64,000 bases of DNA. Source: Eubacteriales bacterium. Its GTDB lineage: Bacteria; Bacillota; Clostridia; Oscillospirales; CAG-272. The notes beneath the pieces are model-generated. The model did not search any database. It was not told the origin of the DNA and saw only the letters and a list, made by a program, of their open reading frames with translations. Below, in pieces: positions 12,329 through 19,931 of the stretch. Position numbers and translations under genes: made by a program. Position 1 is the stretch's first letter. Every line of letters starts with the position of its first letter. The stretch is taken from assembly GCA_051867925.1 (NCBI GenBank), contig JBJDZI010000094.1, positions 48,092-112,091 on the forward strand. Reading direction: 5' to 3'.

Positions 12329-13608
12329 TCGTGACCATCCTGATCATGTGCGCCGCCATCCTGCTCCTGCTGGTCTGCTCCGCATTTTTTGCAGGCACAG
12401 AATCGGCGTTTGCCTGCTGCAACAAACTGCGTCTGAGATCTGCCGCCGAAAAGGGCGATCGCCGCGCAAAAATCGCGGAATACATCCTGGATCACTTCGG
12501 TGTATCCATTTCCACCATTCTGCTTTCCAATAACTTGGTCAACATTCTGACCTCTACGCTTGGTACATTGATCGCCGCCATGCTGATCGCCAGCGAATCG
12601 CTGGCACAGACCGCCGCCACGGTAGTCATCACCCTGCTGATTTTGATCTGCGGCGAGATCCTGCCTAAGATCATCGCGGCGCAGTTTGCCGACCGATTGG
12701 TGCTGAAGACTGCTCCCATCCTGCGGATCGTGATGAAGATCTTCTACCCCATCGTCTTCGTGGTAGACTTCGTCCTTTCCAAACTCTCCCCGCTTTGGAC
12801 GCCAAAAGAAGAAGCACCCACCGTCACCCAGGAAGAACTGGTGACCATCGTGGACGAGATGGAGGAAAGCGGCAACTTCACCGAGGAAGAGGGTGATCTG
12901 GTTCGCGCTTCCATCGAATTTGCCGATCTGACCGCCAAGGATATTCTGACGCCCCGCGTAGACACCCTTGCCTTTGACATCGAGGACAGTCCCGCCGCTC
13001 TGCTTTCCAATCGGGATCTGCTGGAATTCTCCCGCTTCCCCGTGTACGAGGAAAGCCTCGACCACGTAATCGGCATCCTGTCCACCCAGCGCTTCGTGGA
13101 AACCTGCTACGAAGTGGGCGTGGAGAGAGTCGATATCAGAAAACTGATGACTCCCCCCGTGTATGTCCACATGACCCGCGCCATCGCCTCCATTTTGGAG
13201 GAAATGCGGGAAAAGCACTGCGAAATGGTAGTGGTGCTGGACGAATTCGGCGGCACGATGGGCATTCTGACAGTGGAAGACATCGTCGAGGAGATTGTCG
13301 GCGACATCTTCGACGAGACCGACGCCTTCGAAAGCGATTTCGTCAAACGCATCGACGGCTATGACGTTGACGGTTCCATGAACCTTCACGATTTCTTCGA
13401 TCTGATCGGGCTGGACGACAGCACCCAGGAGAGCGAGTACACCACCGCCGGTGGCTGGGCTACCGAGATGCTGGATAAGCTCCCCGAAGAGGGCGACCGA
13501 TTCGAGTTTGAAAACTATACCGTGACCGTCCTCAAGGTCGACGCCATGCGCGTGGAACGGCTTCTCGTTCATGTGCATCCCAAGAATGAAGAAGAGGAAG
13601 ACGAATAA
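12325..13608 (+). CDS. CNNM/DUF21 + CBS + CorC_HlyC transporter-associated protein (hemolysin/CorC family)
   Basis: 427 aa. FFAGTESAFACCNKLRLR, LSNNLVN, CGEILPK, CBS pair, C-terminal DGSMNLHDFFDL..YTTAGGW. ATGA start/stop overlap with the upstream paralogue. Confidence 0.88.
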   Translation: MIVTILIMCAAILLLLVCSAFFAGTESAFACCNKLRLRSAAEKGDRRAKIAEYILDHFGVSISTILLSNNLVNILTSTLGTLIAAMLIASESLAQTAATVVITLLILICGEILPKIIAAQFADRLVLKTAPILRIVMKIFYPIVFVVDFVLSKLSPLWTPKEEAPTVTQEELVTIVDEMEESGNFTEEEGDLVRASIEFADLTAKDILTPRVDTLAFDIEDSPAALLSNRDLLEFSRFPVYEESLDHVIGILSTQRFVETCYEVGVERVDIRKLMTPPVYVHMTRAIASILEEMREKHCEMVVVLDEFGGTMGILTVEDIVEEIVGDIFDETDAFESDFVKRIDGYDVDGSMNLHDFFDLIGLDDSTQESEYTTAGGWATEMLDKLPEEGDRFEFENYTVTVLKVDAMRVERLLVHVHPKNEEEEDE

Positions 13609-13612
13609 ACTG

Positions 13613-13643
13613 CCACCACTCCGCAAGGAGTGGTGGTTTTTGT
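13613..13643 (+). terminator. Rho-independent terminator
   Basis: CCACCACTCC-GCAA-GGAGTGGTGG followed by TTTTTGTT, 5 nt after the stop codon. Confidence 0.7.
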
Positions 13644-13706
13644 TGCCAAATTGCACAAATCATTCCACAATCAGCTGTTTAATTCGCTGAATTTTCGGCA
13701 CCGCTA

Positions 13707-13735
13707 TTGACAAAATTTGGTTTCTGTGCTATACT
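13707..13735 (+). promoter_or_regulatory. Sigma-70-type promoter of the low-GC cassette
   Basis: TTGACA (13707-13712), 17 nt, TGc-TATACT (13730-13735). Confidence 0.65.
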
Positions 13736-13851
13736 GAATACGAATAGAAATACTAACTCTATAATCATCAAAAGGAGTGAGTCCGATGGTGCAGCCGGAA
13801 TGAGCATTTTTCCGAGTTTTTGATGTAAAAAGGAGAAAATACAAATGTTTT

Positions 13852-15216
13852 TTGGGGTTCGCCTGTATTTTGATCTGTTCAGTCGGTCTGGCACTGAATG
13901 TCAGCGCAGACACCCTTGAGCAGAATCCCGGCACCCACGAAATCGCTATGGAAGCTGAAGTATCCGCTACTTCTGAGGTAACCATCACCCCGTCTGACGA
14001 TTTCGTTCTGATTGGCGAGAGTGTTCAATACAGTTGTTCAGGTGCTCCCGGCACTGTAACCTGGCAGATTCGTGACACCAATATTGCCACCGTCAATGGC
14101 ACCGGATTGGTCACAGGCGTTTCCCAAGGGCAGACCTATCTGACTGCGATGTGGGACGGCGGATCGCTCTCGGTCACCATCAAGGTAGGTGCTCTGAAAG
14201 AAGGCACTTATTATATTGGAAATAAGGGCTCAACGTTATACATGGATCTCGAAGGTGCAGCTTCTACCGACGGTACACCAATTCAGCAATGGCAATTCCA
14301 TGGCGGCATTCAAAGCAGATGGATTATTGCTATGGAAAGTACGGGCTTTTATTCCATCCGCTGTGCGTACACAGGAAAATACATCGGCGTAGAGAATTCC
14401 TCCACCGGCAGTAACGCGGCAATTCTGCAGTACAGTTCCATTGCCAATCAAAGAGGACGGCAATGGTATATTTCGGTCACTTCAAGCGGCGCATACCGAT
14501 TCACGCCGCGATCAGCAAGCAATATGGCATTGGCAGTTCCCCTCTCCGGCACCTTTGATAATGGAACCGATCTCGTACAGCTTGTATACACTGATAACAC
14601 CAACTATCGGGATGAGTGGGTAGTGATTGAAAATGGGATAACGACCTTTCTCGCGATTCCTGATACCGGGCACGATCACCAAGCCTCTTTCCCTTCTGCT
14701 ATCACTTCTGTCAACGCTATGGGATACGGTGAAAACCACATCTACACCAGCGCAAATACAAATTCCTGCATAGAGATGATTGCATCGTCTGATATTTTCT
14801 ACAGCAGATCGCACGGTGCTCAAACGCATATATCCCTTGCGACCGGTTCGTTTGGTGTACGGAACCTAAATAGCCAAGTCCCGAACGACAAATTTTCGAA
14901 ATGCAAGTTGGTTCTATTTGGTGCCTGTTCCACAGGTCAGGGACGCGCACTCGAGGAGAACTTAGTCAACGCAGTTCAAGCCAAAGGTGCAAAGACCGTG
15001 ATCGGTTTTGAATCCACCGTAAATTGTAGCGAAATGAACGACTGGGCAAAAGCCTTTTTCGCTGCTTTAGCGCAAAAAGATACTGTTAGAGCAGCCTGCA
15101 GAGCGGCTGATGCAGTCATTTCGGAAGAATATCCCAGCACTACAACCGTTGGGTATTGGTATATTGCCGGTATCCAAACCCAAATCATACATCTTGATAC
15201 CATAGGAGGTAACTGA
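13852..15216 (+). CDS. Secreted multidomain protein: Big_2 Ig-like domain + ricin-type beta-trefoil lectin + C-terminal CHAT/caspase-like (clan CD) peptidase-like domain
   Basis: 454 aa from TTG 13852 (start is problematic, see findings). Hydrophobic leader ..LALNVSA|D. Big_2-like VTITPSD..VTGVSQGQTYLTA (about 13978-14187). Three QxW-type repeats QQWQF / RQWYI / DEWVV (about 14203-14628). SRSHG (His codon 14812-14814) and LVLFGACSTGQG (Cys codon 14926-14928), followed by AKGAKTVIGF..FFAALA. Confidence 0.75.
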   Translation: MGFACILICSVGLALNVSADTLEQNPGTHEIAMEAEVSATSEVTITPSDDFVLIGESVQYSCSGAPGTVTWQIRDTNIATVNGTGLVTGVSQGQTYLTAMWDGGSLSVTIKVGALKEGTYYIGNKGSTLYMDLEGAASTDGTPIQQWQFHGGIQSRWIIAMESTGFYSIRCAYTGKYIGVENSSTGSNAAILQYSSIANQRGRQWYISVTSSGAYRFTPRSASNMALAVPLSGTFDNGTDLVQLVYTDNTNYRDEWVVIENGITTFLAIPDTGHDHQASFPSAITSVNAMGYGENHIYTSANTNSCIEMIASSDIFYSRSHGAQTHISLATGSFGVRNLNSQVPNDKFSKCKLVLFGACSTGQGRALEENLVNAVQAKGAKTVIGFESTVNCSEMNDWAKAFFAALAQKDTVRAACRAADAVISEEYPSTTTVGYWYIAGIQTQIIHLDTIGGN

Positions 15217-15217
15217 T

Positions 15218-16183
15218 ATGAAGTCCACCACTCGTTTTTTCAGTATTCTGTTTGCAGCATTGTTCTGCCTGACTGCTTGCGCCGGTCAAACTGATGTCAA
15301 TGACCGTCCCGAGCCCATCACATTAACTGCCGATTCCTTCTCTGCCATGCATCTTTCAGCAAGTGATGCGAACATTCTCAACGATCAAGCAGTCATCCGT
15401 TCGCAAAATACCAATCCATTCGTTGATGCAAACGCAAACACGCAAGCCGATCTGTCTCTGAAAAACAATCCCATCACCGTAGCATACAAAGAGACGCTCA
15501 TGGATGCATACGGAAATCAAATCAACCATTATCAGTCGACAGATGGGAAAATTAAAGCCAAATATGATAAAGAGAATGGAAAATTGGTTCAAATAACGGC
15601 TACCAAAAGCGACTTCCAAATGCCGGATGATCTGCAAACCGAAGAAGATTATCTGACCTTTGTCAAAGAGGTGTTGAAGGATTACGGCGTCACCGATCTG
15701 TCGGGCTACCAATACTCGTGCAAAACCGGTCTTTGTGTATTCGGAGAGAATTACGCATATGGAGATTCCAAGGACTATTTTTATCGGGATTTCGATCCTT
15801 CCTGCGAGGAACTCTCCTATTACGAGTTTTGTTTCGATAAGATCATCGACGGCTATCATACGTCTGATTCTATTCAGATCTATATCGCCATTGACCCCAT
15901 AGATATAATGTTTATCAGATTTGACGCCGGAAAGTTTGAAAACGTAACCAAAATCGAACTGAACGAATCCAAAATGCTTGAAACATTGGACGAGTATGTG
16001 AAGGGAGTCGTGAATACGGCAAAATACGAGTTTCTGTCGTATGAAGTCAGCAATCAGACTCTGACCTATGTTGACGGCAAACTCTGTAACGTATATACTG
16101 TGGAATTGAACATGAAGCATGTGACCGATCCCGACACACAATCGTTCTGTACGCTGGAGACTATCGGCATATTCTGTGAATAA
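15218..16183 (+). CDS. Lipoprotein of unknown function, translationally coupled to the lectin-protease gene
   Basis: 321 aa. MKSTTRFFSILFAALFCLTACAGQ (lipobox LTAC). ATG lies 1 nt after the upstream TGA. Same lower-GC composition. Confidence 0.75.
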   Translation: MKSTTRFFSILFAALFCLTACAGQTDVNDRPEPITLTADSFSAMHLSASDANILNDQAVIRSQNTNPFVDANANTQADLSLKNNPITVAYKETLMDAYGNQINHYQSTDGKIKAKYDKENGKLVQITATKSDFQMPDDLQTEEDYLTFVKEVLKDYGVTDLSGYQYSCKTGLCVFGENYAYGDSKDYFYRDFDPSCEELSYYEFCFDKIIDGYHTSDSIQIYIAIDPIDIMFIRFDAGKFENVTKIELNESKMLETLDEYVKGVVNTAKYEFLSYEVSNQTLTYVDGKLCNVYTVELNMKHVTDPDTQSFCTLETIGIFCE

Positions 16184-16213
16184 TTGCATAAATCAAATGA
16201 GCTTGATACAAAG

Positions 16214-16311
16214 CTCCAACCAAGCGCAAGGGCGGCAAGAATTTGTCGCCCTTGTACAATTGTTTATAGAGTTCCGCGCACTTTTTTAAAAAAGTGCCTG
16301 ATTGGTTGGAG
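16214..16311. terminator. Nested inverted repeats between convergent genes (probable bidirectional terminator structure)
   Basis: Outer 10-bp arms CTCCAACCAA (16214-16223) / TTGGTTGGAG (16302-16311). Inner hairpins CAAGGGCGGCAA-GAAT-TTGTCGCCCTTG (16227-16254) and GCACTTTTTT/AAAAAAGTGC (about 16277-16298). The latter spans the PPTase stop codon. Confidence 0.5.
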
Positions 16312-16858
16312 TCTCAAAACGATTGAGTTCAATCTCGGACACAAAGCGAGGCGGCAGAGAAACCGCTTCTCCTACTGCGGTCAGCAGATAGCCGGGAATG
16401 AGGCGCAGAGTGCAAAACGCATCTGCGGGCGGCATGACATGGGGCGCGTGTCCCGCACATTTGAGCGCCGCCTCGTATCGCGTCCACCGAAGGATGGCAG
16501 TATAGCCGTCGCCCACAGGCTCGTCGGGAGTCTCTGCCAAAAACCGTCGCCACAATGCAGGGGACACCGAGCGGATGCGCTCCAAATCTATCCCGATCGT
16601 CACGCCTGAAGCATCCGAGAGCGCGCAGACCGCCCAGCTTCCCGAATGGGAGAGGGAGCATTCCATCCCCACAGGAGTTCCGTCGGCAAAGGTCAGATAG
16701 GGCTTTCCTTCCGGAGTGCGGCAGAGCAGAACGGAGACAGGAGCGATCCCCGCATCCGCCAATGCCCTTGAGAGCAGACGGTGGACGCCCCGGGACAGCA
16801 AACGCCGCCGCTCTGCGGGCGTGTCGGGAAGGGTCAGACGGGTCAGATAGAGCCTCAC
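16286..16858 (-). CDS. 4'-phosphopantetheinyl transferase (Sfp type)
   Basis: Track ORF 16286..17188 trimmed to GTG 16858 (MRLYLTRLTL...), which forms a GTGA overlap with the upstream stop. Motifs: GKPYL, CSLSHSGSWAVCALS, IGIDLERIR, WTRYEAALKC. Confidence 0.75.
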   Translation of the reverse strand: MRLYLTRLTLPDTPAERRRLLSRGVHRLLSRALADAGIAPVSVLLCRTPEGKPYLTFADGTPVGMECSLSHSGSWAVCALSDASGVTIGIDLERIRSVSPALWRRFLAETPDEPVGDGYTAILRWTRYEAALKCAGHAPHVMPPADAFCTLRLIPGYLLTAVGEAVSLPPRFVSEIELNRFETPTNQALF

Positions 16859-17787
16859 TTCCGCCGTCCTCCGAAGGGGAGGGGCGCCAGCATCCGATCC
16901 AGCGGCCTTGCAAGGAAGGAGCAGATCAGCGCGGCAATCAGAGAGCCGTCCAACCCCGTATAAGTGCGCAGCAGGATGGTCAGCACGCCGAAGAGCGCAC
17001 CGCAAACCAGCCCGGCACGCCCGGTAATGGGCGCAGAGGTGCGGTCTGCAACGATAAAGAGCAACACCAGCAGGAAAGCACCGCTGAACAGGTGCGCGCC
17101 CATGTAATAGAAGACCGACATGGTATCGGGCGCGGTCACATATGCAGTAAGCGCCGCCGCCACCACCCCCGCCAGCGGGATCTGCCAACTCATCTGTCGG
17201 CGGAGAAGCAGATACAAACCACCCAGCAGAAGCAGGAGCGAGGCGATCTCACCCATGTTGCCGTCCATTCTGCCCAGTAGCATATCTGTGATACGCAGCG
17301 AGGGCATATCCCCCGCCCGAAGCATTTCTGCCAGCGTCACACCGCTCTCGCTGTCGATCAGTAGAGGAAAACTGCGAGCGGCGGGAAAGAGGAGCAGGAG
17401 GCATCCCGTCAGTGCCACCAGCGAGATAGGGAGATTCGATTCACTGCGAAAGACCTGCAACATTGCCACAGCGTACAGATCGGCGGCAATGAGAAGCAAC
17501 AGAGGCAGATCAGAGGGCGTGAGCAAGGCGATGAGAAGTCCCACCACAGCCCCCCGAAGGCGCAGGCACGGGAAGCCACCTCTACCGAAACGGTTTTGGA
17601 GGATGCACCCCGCCATATCCAACACAAGGACGGTCAATGTGGACAGAAGAATGCGCAAAAGGGCATCTTTGCCAAACAGCAAAACAGCCCAGACCACGGC
17701 AGGGGTCAGCGCGATCAACCGCTCCAGCGAAAGAATCGCGGGATTATCCCCACAATGCAGACGGGGTTCGGAAAAATGACGGTCCAT
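16855..17787 (-). CDS. RnfD/NqrB-like integral membrane protein
   Basis: 310 aa polytopic. RnfD-like core SESGVTLAEML (S-G-x-T flavinylation-type motif) and GNMGEIASLLLLLGGLYLLLRR. Confidence 0.8.
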   Translation of the reverse strand: MDRHFSEPRLHCGDNPAILSLERLIALTPAVVWAVLLFGKDALLRILLSTLTVLVLDMAGCILQNRFGRGGFPCLRLRGAVVGLLIALLTPSDLPLLLLIAADLYAVAMLQVFRSESNLPISLVALTGCLLLLFPAARSFPLLIDSESGVTLAEMLRAGDMPSLRITDMLLGRMDGNMGEIASLLLLLGGLYLLLRRQMSWQIPLAGVVAAALTAYVTAPDTMSVFYYMGAHLFSGAFLLVLLFIVADRTSAPITGRAGLVCGALFGVLTILLRTYTGLDGSLIAALICSFLARPLDRMLAPLPFGGRRK

Positions 17788-18969: not shown

Positions 18970-19070
18970 ACAAACCTCGTAAAAACAAAGAACAGGGACA
19001 GCGCGCAAAACACGGCATTCGGCGCGCGAGAGCGGTACGATATCCGCAGAATGCCCCTATTTTATGAAGT

Positions 19071-19099
19071 ATTATAATACAGTTTGCCACAAAAATCAA
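19071..19099 (-). promoter_or_regulatory. Sigma-70-type promoter for the rnfC-like operon
   Basis: Minus strand reads TTGATT (19099-19094), 17 nt, TATAAT (19076-19071). Confidence 0.55.
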
Positions 19100-19169
19100 G
19101 AGGAAAGTCGTGAATAGTTGGTAAATTCCGAAAAAGCGAAAAAATCGAATTTTTTTTTTGAAAAAGGTA

Positions 19170-19198
19170 TTGACAAACAGGCTTCTTTATGTTAGAAT
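19170..19198 (+). promoter_or_regulatory. Sigma-70-type promoter for the tRNA pair
   Basis: TTGACA (19170-19175), 17 nt, TGt-TAGAAT (19193-19198), preceded by an A/T tract (UP-like). Confidence 0.65.
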
Positions 19199-19225
19199 AA
19201 TCAAGCGCTCAACCGAGCGATAAAT

Positions 19226-19302
19226 GGCGGAGTAGCTCAGCTGGCTAGAGCAACCGGTTCATACCCGGTAGGTCATGGGTTCAAGTCCAATCTCCGCTAC
19301 CA
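19226..19302 (+). tRNA. tRNA-Met (anticodon CAT, elongator-like; tRNA-Ile2/lysidine cannot be excluded)
   Basis: 77 nt cloverleaf folded by hand: acceptor GGCGGAG/CTCCGCT (G1-U72), D arm GCTC-AGCTGGCTA-GAGC, anticodon arm ACCGG-TTCATAC-CCGGT, T arm with GTTCAAGTC, encoded CCA. One G-A mismatch in the T stem. Confidence 0.9.
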
Positions 19303-19326
19303 ATTATCCGCAAAGCGGATAATTTC

Positions 19327-19401
19327 GGCCCGTTGGTCAAGCGGTTAAGACACGGCCCTTTCACGGCTGTAACATGGGTTCGATTCCCGTACGGGTCACC
19401 A
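19327..19401 (+). tRNA. tRNA-Glu (anticodon TTC)
   Basis: 75 nt: GGCCCGT..GGTCAAGCGGTTAAGAC..anticodon loop CTTTCAC..GGTTCGATTCC..ACGGGTC-A-CCA. Classic Firmicutes tRNA-Glu sequence. Confidence 0.9.
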
Positions 19402-19407
19402 AACGTA

Positions 19408-19457
19408 ACAAATCCGAACTATTTCGTCAATCGAAATTGGTTCGGATTTGTTTTTAT
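19408..19457 (+). terminator. Rho-independent terminator after the tRNA pair
   Basis: ACAAATCCGAAC (19408-19419) pairs with GTTCGGATTTGT (19440-19451), with an inner ATTTCG/CGAAAT stem, followed by TTTTAT. Confidence 0.75.
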
Positions 19458-19931
19458 TTGAATTGTTAATATCTGCATTTGTCGTATTTTTCTCGTTTTT
19501 TCCATTGGATTTGCCCAATTGCGATTCCCAAATCGAGCACGGCAGTCGCGCAAGCGGTCAATACATTTGCCTGCATAAATTTCATCCCCAAGCAAACACT
19601 TGAAACGGCAAGCATATTGTCAGGCAGCATAATAAATGTACCATTTTTTATTATAATGATTGACTTTTGGAGTTTTGTATGGTACAATAAATTTATCAAG
19701 TCATATCAGGAGGTGAACATTATGGCAAACGACGGCAGTTGTGGGGCAAGTGGACGATTATGCAGATATCTACCACGGTTGACAGAGTCGGCTCGTTTTG
19801 CCGCATTGATGTTCTGTGATATGATATTCTGAAATTTCCGTATTGCCTCGCGCACTACGGTATTTTTATGCCCATTTGTTTCTCGCATCAGTTGATACGT
19901 ACAAACTATCAATGAAACGGAGGAAAACAAA

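Follow-up and report, generated by a model that had tools for sequence, protein, structure and literature searches.

A Predicted Exported Lectin-Protease and a Coupled Lipoprotein Form an Accessory Cassette in an Uncultured Gut Clostridia Genome

Results

Gene 1 combines exported lectin domains with a clan-CD peptidase domain

The stretch of DNA analyzed here (the window) comprises 64,000 nt from a Eubacteriales bacterium of the lineage CAG-272 (assembly GCA_051867925.1, contig JBJDZI010000094.1, positions 48,092–112,091). All coordinates are positions in this window, and L001–L028 are labels of the related loci and contigs that were compared with it. The subject of this work is a cassette of two open reading frames (ORFs) on the + strand, gene 1 (13852–15216, 454 aa, starting from TTG) and gene 2 (15218–16183, 321 aa), which we conclude to be an accessory two-gene module in a variable intergenic hotspot of this uncultured gut Clostridia genome. 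A preliminary description of the window had proposed two coupled genes 1 nt apart, and the ORF coordinates agree with this.

Gene 1 begins with the hydrophobic core of a signal peptide and a cleavage-type region (NVSA/D), read from the sequence at residues 1–19 (13852–13908, +). These are followed by a Big_2 Ig-like domain at residues 41–112 (13972–14187, +; Pfam PF02368, E = 2.6e-10, 40.6 bits against a cut-off of 22.8) and by a ricin-type beta-trefoil lectin at residues 115–254 (14194–14613, +; RicinB_lectin_2, PF14200, E = 5.9e-30, three stretches, 104.2 bits against a cut-off of 25.6), for which sugar binding is predicted. The lectin had been described as carrying three QxW repeats. The trefoil lectin stands, but only one strict motif is present (QQW, residue 145), the other two repeats being degenerate. 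The remainder of the protein, residues 255–454 (14614–15213, +), is a CHAT-like cysteine peptidase domain of clan CD, as assigned from a structure model, fold comparison and the CHAT matches of its relatives. No linker separates trefoil and peptidase, as the last trefoil motif, Y.DEW, leads directly into strand 1 of the peptidase domain. An exact-sequence look-up of gene 1 gave no match.

The Pfam CHAT model (PF12770) matches gene 1 below threshold and over part of its length (E = 2.5e-4, 21.0 bits, residues 348–425, model positions 187–268 of 289). Single-sequence AlphaFold2 prediction of full-length gene 1 was unusable, with a predicted local distance difference test score (pLDDT) of 33.6. 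Prediction of the C-terminal domain from a 41-sequence alignment gave a pLDDT of 95.1 and a predicted template-modelling score of 0.91, and this model displays the alpha/beta/alpha sandwich with a central, mostly parallel sheet that characterizes clan CD. In a Foldseek comparison with the PDB, ranks 1–31 were clan-CD peptidases without exception. SAVED-CHAT (8TL0) was matched with E = 1.7e-9 and gingipain R with the best TM-score (0.74), and the other matches included Csx29/TPR-CHAT, separase, caspases-3/7/9, legumain, MALT1 and DdvA, with a probability of 1.00 across the clan-CD matches. The comparison, which could have returned a non-peptidase fold, is thus in accordance with the CHAT/caspase fold proposed beforehand.

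The histidine (FYSRSHG, H321) and the cysteine (LVLFGACSTGQG, C359) are found at the places where the preliminary description had put them. In 105 aligned domains the predicted catalytic His321 and the adjoining Gly322 (codons 14812–14817, +) are each conserved in 104, and the predicted nucleophile Cys359 (codon 14926–14928, +) in all 105. They lie in the family motifs (I/V)F..R(S/T)HG and L(V/I).(Y/F)GAC.TG.G; N370, G379, G385–F386, W398 and F402 are conserved as well. In the model each member of the dyad follows a strand, IFYSRSHG coming after strand 61–65 and LVLFGAC after strand 99–103 (model numbering). When the family profile was compared with PDB sequences, the sole peptidase match was 8TL0, a CHAT protein, with the HG of the family aligned to its catalytic His at chain position 355 and the C to its catalytic Cys at position 402. 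The catalytic dyad of SAVED-CHAT has been reported as H375/C422 (bioRxiv 10.1101/2023.06.23.546230). As the offset is a constant 20 residues, the two aligned positions would correspond to the published dyad. The structure model and the alignments support the assignment of the gene 1 C-terminal domain as a minimal clan-CD cysteine peptidase of ∼190 aa from the CHAT lineage, with His321/Cys359 as its predicted dyad.

The peptidase domain belongs to a large unannotated family

A word-indexed protein search with the C-terminal domain returned one fragment only, and the family was revealed by an exhaustive HMMER search with residues 255–454 (threshold E ≤ 1e-3). It comprises at least 578 cluster representatives at this threshold and 178 at E ≤ 1e-10. 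A metagenome scan with an 8-sequence alignment gave one locus. In 143 of 150 matches no more than 30 residues follow the peptidase domain, which thus almost always forms the extreme C-terminus of proteins that range from 200 to 1400 aa, and many family members carry canonical signal peptides at the N-terminus. Among 70 full-length relatives, RicinB_lectin_2 was found in 60, CHAT in 46, Big_2 in 32, CBM96 in 15 and dockerin in two; one relative matched Peptidase_C25. The CHAT matches have E ≤ 0.01 (best 1.4e-11), so that gene 1 is linked to CHAT proteins by homology through intermediates. The relatives come from Eubacteriales, Clostridia and Oscillospiraceae metagenome-assembled genomes (MAGs) and bear only the public names "RICIN domain-containing protein" or "Ig-like domain-containing protein."

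As 60 of the 70 relatives carry a ricin lectin, the fusion of ricin and CHAT-like domains is the rule in a sizeable unannotated family. A secreted, glycan-targeted CHAT protein had beforehand been called unusual. Export and lectin fusion are borne out, but rarity is not, this arrangement being the norm among the members found. Literature searches on secreted or ricin-linked CHAT proteins retrieved nothing specific.

One further locus, from a human gut metagenome (L025, 499–7142), holds an array of three modules, one with a CHAT-like member and two with ricin-lectin proteins (243 and 223 aa) that have different beta-rich C-termini. A membrane-anchored protein comes after each module, and two of these proteins have sub-threshold SurA_N-like matches. 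This array may be a polymorphic lectin-effector locus.

A lipoprotein family accompanies the protease family

Gene 2 (+ strand) encodes a lipoprotein of an unannotated family, as defined from the ORF list and an alignment. Its lipobox, LTAC (MKSTTRFFSILFAALFCLTAC), conforms to the pattern [LVI][ASTVI][GAS]C, and the lipobox cysteine, Cys21 (15278–15280), is invariant in 11 of 11 family members. No significant match to gene 2 was found in Pfam, NCBIfam, the PDB (searched with the single sequence and with a profile), PADLOC or PHROGs. This agrees with its earlier labelling as an uncharacterized lipoprotein. A SurA/PrsA-like chaperone was considered and rejected, as hhalign matched the signal peptide only, and a link to DUF4901 through the lipoprotein of L022 was weak (hhalign probability 54%).

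The Shine–Dalgarno sequence of gene 2, AGGAGG (15204–15209, +), lies 8 nt ahead of its ATG at 15218, inside the last codons of gene 1 (Gly-Gly-Asn). As the Gly-Gly codons of a conserved GGN motif encode AGGAGG, the coupling signal of gene 2 is built into the coding sequence of gene 1. The C-terminal GGN (window 15201–15217) is kept in the nearest protease homologs, P0002, P0008 and the protein of L018.

Eight homologs of gene 2 were found, with 93–42% identity. A lipoprotein of this family directly follows a protease-family gene at seven independent loci, including the window, with unrelated neighbors. The gap between the two genes is 1–15 nt across the paired loci, except for L019 with ∼150 nt. 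It measures 1 nt at L017 and at L018, where the protease-family protein has 924 aa and 64% identity, 11 nt at L026/27 (profile E = 2e-64), 12 nt at L028 (E = 1.8e-56) and 15 nt at L023. Pairwise identities of the peptidase domain and of the lipoprotein co-vary (Spearman 0.90, 15 non-independent pairs), and the lipoprotein diverges faster than the peptidase domain. The possible partnership raised in the preliminary description gains from both observations: conserved adjacency and co-divergence support the lipoprotein as the true cognate partner of the protease family.

Three further observations concern individual loci. At L023 (3936–5009), and at L024, the protease-family member is split into ORFs of 103 and 247 aa, 18 nt apart. 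Its cluster-mate P0174 is intact with 357 aa, and L023 represents a second disrupted protease allele with an intact lipoprotein downstream. Solo lipoproteins of the gene 2 family occur at L020 (3473–7236) and L021 (1842–3939), amid other unannotated lipoproteins and downstream of a gene for a PolyA_pol/CCA-adding enzyme; these may be poly-lipoprotein loci resembling poly-immunity loci. At L018 (7270–12969, GCA_052829005.1) the module immediately precedes the genes of a type I-C CRISPR-Cas system (operon cas3, cas5d, csd1, cas7, cas4), which is probably a coincidental clustering of islands.

The cassette is accessory and occupies a variable low-GC gap

The cassette had been judged by eye to be AT-rich. 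Computation confirmed this, as 13609–16285 has a GC content of 0.455 compared with 0.537 for the whole window and is the minimum of all 2677-bp windows in the 64 kb, of which 0.16% are as low. GC content at third codon positions is likewise lowered (0.49 in gene 1 and 0.50 in gene 2 vs. 0.62–0.73 in the flanking CNNM, PPTase and Rnf genes).

We retrieved 12 related MAG loci via the CNNM gene (roe-deer caecum, rabbit and others). Contigs L003 and L004 end ahead of the gap, and the other 10 extend to the downstream neighbors in the order CNNM–CNNM–gap–PPTase–RnfD–RnfC. Neither gene 1 nor gene 2 is present in any of the 12. Nucleotide homology to the sister MAGs L001, L002 and L005 stops at 13603–13609 and restarts at 16368–16378. 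These break points, together with the GC content, define a variable segment at 13609–16367 that holds the whole cassette between the conserved second CNNM gene (CNNM2) and the PPTase gene. A horizontally acquired genomic islet is recognized by its atypical composition and by a conserved site at which sister genomes lack it, and both were observed here. The horizontal or accessory status that had been proposed for the cassette is in good agreement with these data; it is strain-specific and atypical in composition rather than universally conserved with native composition. Signatures of mobility are lacking: no integrase ORF lies within 13609–16367, no direct or inverted repeats bounding the cassette were found, and the closest tRNA genes, as a potential target, are 3 kb off.

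The same gap (13609–16367 in the window) serves as a cargo hotspot, corresponding to 2353–3400 in L001, 11281–11616 in L002 and 1353–5465 in L005. In L002 it is empty, with ∼290 bp. In L001 it holds a low-GC gene for a 178-aa multi-pass membrane protein. In L005 it holds two genes, one for a secreted alpha-galactosidase-like protein of 1035 aa that includes a rhodanese-like segment and one, on the opposite strand, for a 146-aa lipoprotein.

Four Logan contigs (L013–L016; SRR6824193/4/5/179) carry the same site at 92–96% nucleotide identity with a clean deletion of 1246 bp. The deleted segment, mapped by blastn to 13831–15076, includes the ribosome-binding site of gene 1 and its codons 1–408. 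In L013, window positions 13000–13830 and 15077–16252 are joined (blastn, 92–96%) with an AAAA(A)G microhomology at the junction. The deletion spares the promoter, a 46-codon 3′ stub of gene 1 and an intact lipoprotein gene (93% identical). In this lineage gene 1 has been deleted and the lipoprotein kept, which by analogy is an orphan-immunity pattern.

The preliminary description had also given the cassette a promoter and a terminator of its own, and candidates for both are present. A sigma-70-type promoter-like site at 13707–13735 (+), recognized by its consensus match (TTGACA-17-TATACT with a TG extension, 11/12), lies directly 3′ of the terminator hairpin of the upstream CNNM/CorC gene (13612–13637, +; 11-bp stem followed by a T run), which forms the left boundary of the segment. 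A terminator-like hairpin follows gene 2 at 16226–16255 (+; 13-bp stem, 7 GC pairs, weak T tail). An Rfam scan of the 110-nt leader and the rest of the cassette revealed no RNA element.

Beyond the cassette, the listed 300-aa PPTase ORF (16286–17188, −) overlaps the rnfD ORF (16855–17787). As the PPTases of relatives have 183–184 aa, translation of the PPTase probably begins near 16840. At 19009–19931 the GC content is again strongly lowered (0.42); this second stretch is intergenic between rnfC (−) and an mgtE-like gene (+) and contains two tRNA genes (19226–19299 and 19327–19398).

The 5′ end of gene 1 is disrupted

The listed start of gene 1, TTG at 13852, has no well-spaced Shine–Dalgarno sequence. 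The codons preceding it in frame (13825–13851) encode VKRRKYKCF, a typical signal-peptide n-region, and no in-frame start codon is present between the stop at 13801 and the TTG. We thus regard 13823–13851 (+) as a disrupted 5′ end. The ATG at 13823 is out of frame, and its own frame is closed by a TAA; the ATG at 13845, which lies in the third frame, begins an ORF of 24 aa. As n-region codons are present that have no in-frame start, a frameshift best explains the arrangement, caused by a 1-nt indel near 13826 that is either real or an assembly error. The GATGTAAAA of the gene 1 5′ end is also present in L013. Gene 1 may be poorly expressed or dead in this genome, though its 454 codons are otherwise intact.

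Discussion

We consider it somewhat probable that the pair is a lectin-guided protease toxin/immunity module in which the lipoprotein is the co-evolving inhibitor or immunity partner. In such a module, the gene 1 product would be exported by the Sec pathway, with its Big_2 and ricin lectin domains fused without a linker to the minimal clan-CD peptidase. By means of the lectin the enzyme would attach to a surface that bears glycans, and its peptidase domain would there cut an extracytoplasmic protein or peptide target. Gene 2 would be translated in coupling with gene 1 by means of the embedded Shine–Dalgarno sequence and the 1-nt gap. Its product, anchored on the outside of the membrane of the producing cell, would bind and neutralize the peptidase at the surface of that cell and so serve as inhibitor or immunity protein. 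The pair would probably be used against neighboring bacteria. This interpretation builds on the observed composition and accessory status of the cassette, the domain folds, the invariant dyad and the conserved adjacency with co-divergence; from these we infer that glycans are targeted, that the lipoprotein confers immunity and which organisms are attacked.

Several points weigh against this interpretation. The CHAT score of gene 1 itself, 21.0 bits, lies below the Pfam gathering cut-off of 24, and its catalytic activity is something we infer from fold and dyad. The inhibitor role of the lipoprotein is argued from genomic logic; gene 2 has no significant match among known immunity or inhibitor families, including Imm36, Imm57 and the other Imm families of Pfam. 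At the more distant loci L022 and L025 the protease is followed by other small membrane proteins or lipoproteins that resemble gene 2 weakly (hhalign 54–66%). The hallmark of polymorphic toxins, alternative C-terminal toxins on one scaffold, is not among the shared features demonstrated. Finally, to judge from its sequence, the start of gene 1 looks defective or ambiguous in this genome.

The enzyme could instead be a protease directed at glycoproteins of the host or the diet (mucin-type or plant glycoproteins, as nutrients), with the lipoprotein as its surface anchor, receptor or maturase. Lactococcal PrtP–PrtM is the model of a protease with a dedicated maturase. Such a function would suit the habitat, herbivore and human gut metagenomes, as well as the carbohydrate-binding domains of the family (ricin and CBM96, with dockerin in two members) and the secreted alpha-galactosidase-like enzyme and lipoprotein in the L005 hotspot. 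Gene 1 itself lacks an anchoring domain, and the ricin proteins of L025 adjoin SurA_N-like membrane proteins. However, a chaperone or anchor would have no obvious use after loss of its client, yet the lipoprotein is intact in L013–L016. Gene 2 also has no SurA/PrsA-type similarity beyond the signal peptide, and its faster divergence relative to the enzyme is a trait seen more typically in immunity proteins. We favor inhibition or immunity as the function of the lipoprotein, rather than anchoring or maturation, because the partner outlives deletion of the enzyme, occurs solo, evolves faster and has no SurA/PrsA similarity, and we regard the glycoprotein-directed function as rather unlikely. A cis-acting role of the peptidase, restricted to releasing or maturing the lectin module as in the C80 CPD-like domains of MARTX and large clostridial toxins, appears very unlikely to us. 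The domain is small (190 aa), and many secreted toxins do use clan-CD domains as releasing peptidases (PMC3482391), but such peptidases lie upstream of their cargo, whereas the gene 1 peptidase is the terminal domain. Moreover, no linker or cleavable segment separates it from the trefoil, C80 CPD structures are not in the top 50 fold matches, and the conserved dedicated partner would be left unexplained.

SAVED-CHAT and Csx29 are among the best matches in sequence and fold, and the L018 module lies beside type I-C cas genes, which could point to a cytoplasmic CHAT-type protease of signaling or anti-phage defense. We reject this as extremely improbable, because family members carry signal peptides as well as lectin, Ig and dockerin domains of extracellular type, and the PADLOC scan was empty. 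In addition, no sensor domain (TPR, SAVED) is present, the partner is a lipoprotein, and the neighbors are CNNM transporters, PPTase and Rnf genes in the window and unrelated genes at the other loci. A separate question, which concerns this allele and not the nature of the module, is whether the cassette is a decaying remnant here, with gene 1 a pseudogene by 5′ frameshift and the lipoprotein alone functional. The KRRKYK codons have no in-frame start upstream of the TTG at 13852, both nearby ATGs (13823 and 13845) being out of frame. L013 shares this lesion context and subsequently lost most of gene 1, and the L023 relative is split (103 + 247 aa) compared with the intact 357-aa allele. On the other hand, the reading frame is open over its 454 codons and retains every conserved residue, the TTG, 16 nt 3′ of an AGGAG motif, could still serve as a start, and a homopolymer assembly error is possible. 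We hold decay of this allele to be a real possibility, somewhat on the doubtful side.

Current work on bacterial CHAT and caspase-like proteases treats them as switches that control immunity and cell death in the cytoplasm. With the CHAT proteases of PF12770 (SAVED-CHAT 8TL0, Csx29/TPR-CHAT of Craspase, separase) gene 1 shares the fold (Foldseek E = 1.7e-9 to 1e-4) and the His-Gly…Ala-Cys dyad, aligned residue by residue, and two thirds of its relatives match the CHAT model. Known CHAT proteases are, however, cytoplasmic and activated by a fused sensor or a partner complex, whereas gene 1 is predicted to be Sec-exported and lectin-fused, with a domain of ∼190 aa that matches part of the CHAT model at a sub-cut-off score and with a lipoprotein as partner. 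Gingipain R (RgpB, MEROPS C25, PDB 1CVR/4IEF) is likewise a secreted bacterial clan-CD protease with Ig-like domains. Unlike gene 1, it stems from a Gram-negative bacterium, is exported by the type IX secretion system and is inhibited in cis by an N-terminal pro-domain; its catalytic domain is about twice as large, and it has neither a ricin lectin nor a lipoprotein partner.

The logic proposed for the pair is known from other systems. In the Tae–Tai pairs of the type VI secretion system an extracytoplasmic peptidase effector is matched by a lipoprotein or periplasmic immunity protein, and LlpA proteins are lectin-like bacteriocins. The likeness, one of description with no homology claimed, lies in a cysteine-peptidase or lectin toxin acting outside the cytoplasm, membrane-tethered immunity encoded next to it and the occurrence of orphan immunity genes. 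These systems differ from gene 1 in their folds (NlpC/P60 papain-like and MMBL lectin), secretion routes and phyla. The closest published concept is the Tox-Caspase prediction, in which Sec-exported proteins carry a C-terminal caspase-like toxin followed by an immunity gene (Zhang et al., 2012; PMC3482391). As there, the caspase-like peptidase is the C-terminal-most domain of a predicted Sec-exported protein, and the gene immediately downstream is proposed to confer immunity. In contrast to Tox-Caspase proteins, gene 1 has no RHS or filamentous repeats, its N-terminal part is a lectin, and its partner belongs to a new family of 320-aa lipoproteins, not to Imm36 or Imm57.

Secreted clan-CD proteases and toxin–immunity pairs are already known; new are this variant and its delineated partner family, that is, a sizeable unannotated branch that is predicted to be exported, hard-wired to lectins and genetically locked to a new lipoprotein family. 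In its boldest form our proposal would describe the first extracellular, inter-bacterial role of a CHAT protease, a freely secreted, lectin-guided weapon of a new Gram-positive antibacterial class, aimed at the envelopes of competing gut Clostridia, with allele-specific immunity by a fast-evolving surface lipoprotein from an unannotated fold family; we find this version rather unlikely as a whole and put it forward tentatively. Should gene 1 and gene 2 prove to be a protease toxin and its immunity protein, they would constitute a new effector class in the competition among gut Firmicutes. If the protease is directed at glycoproteins, it would be a clan-CD counterpart to the mucinases linked to carbohydrate-binding modules. 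Either way, the cassette offers a testable pair of enzyme and candidate inhibitor, together with natural strains that have or lack each gene.

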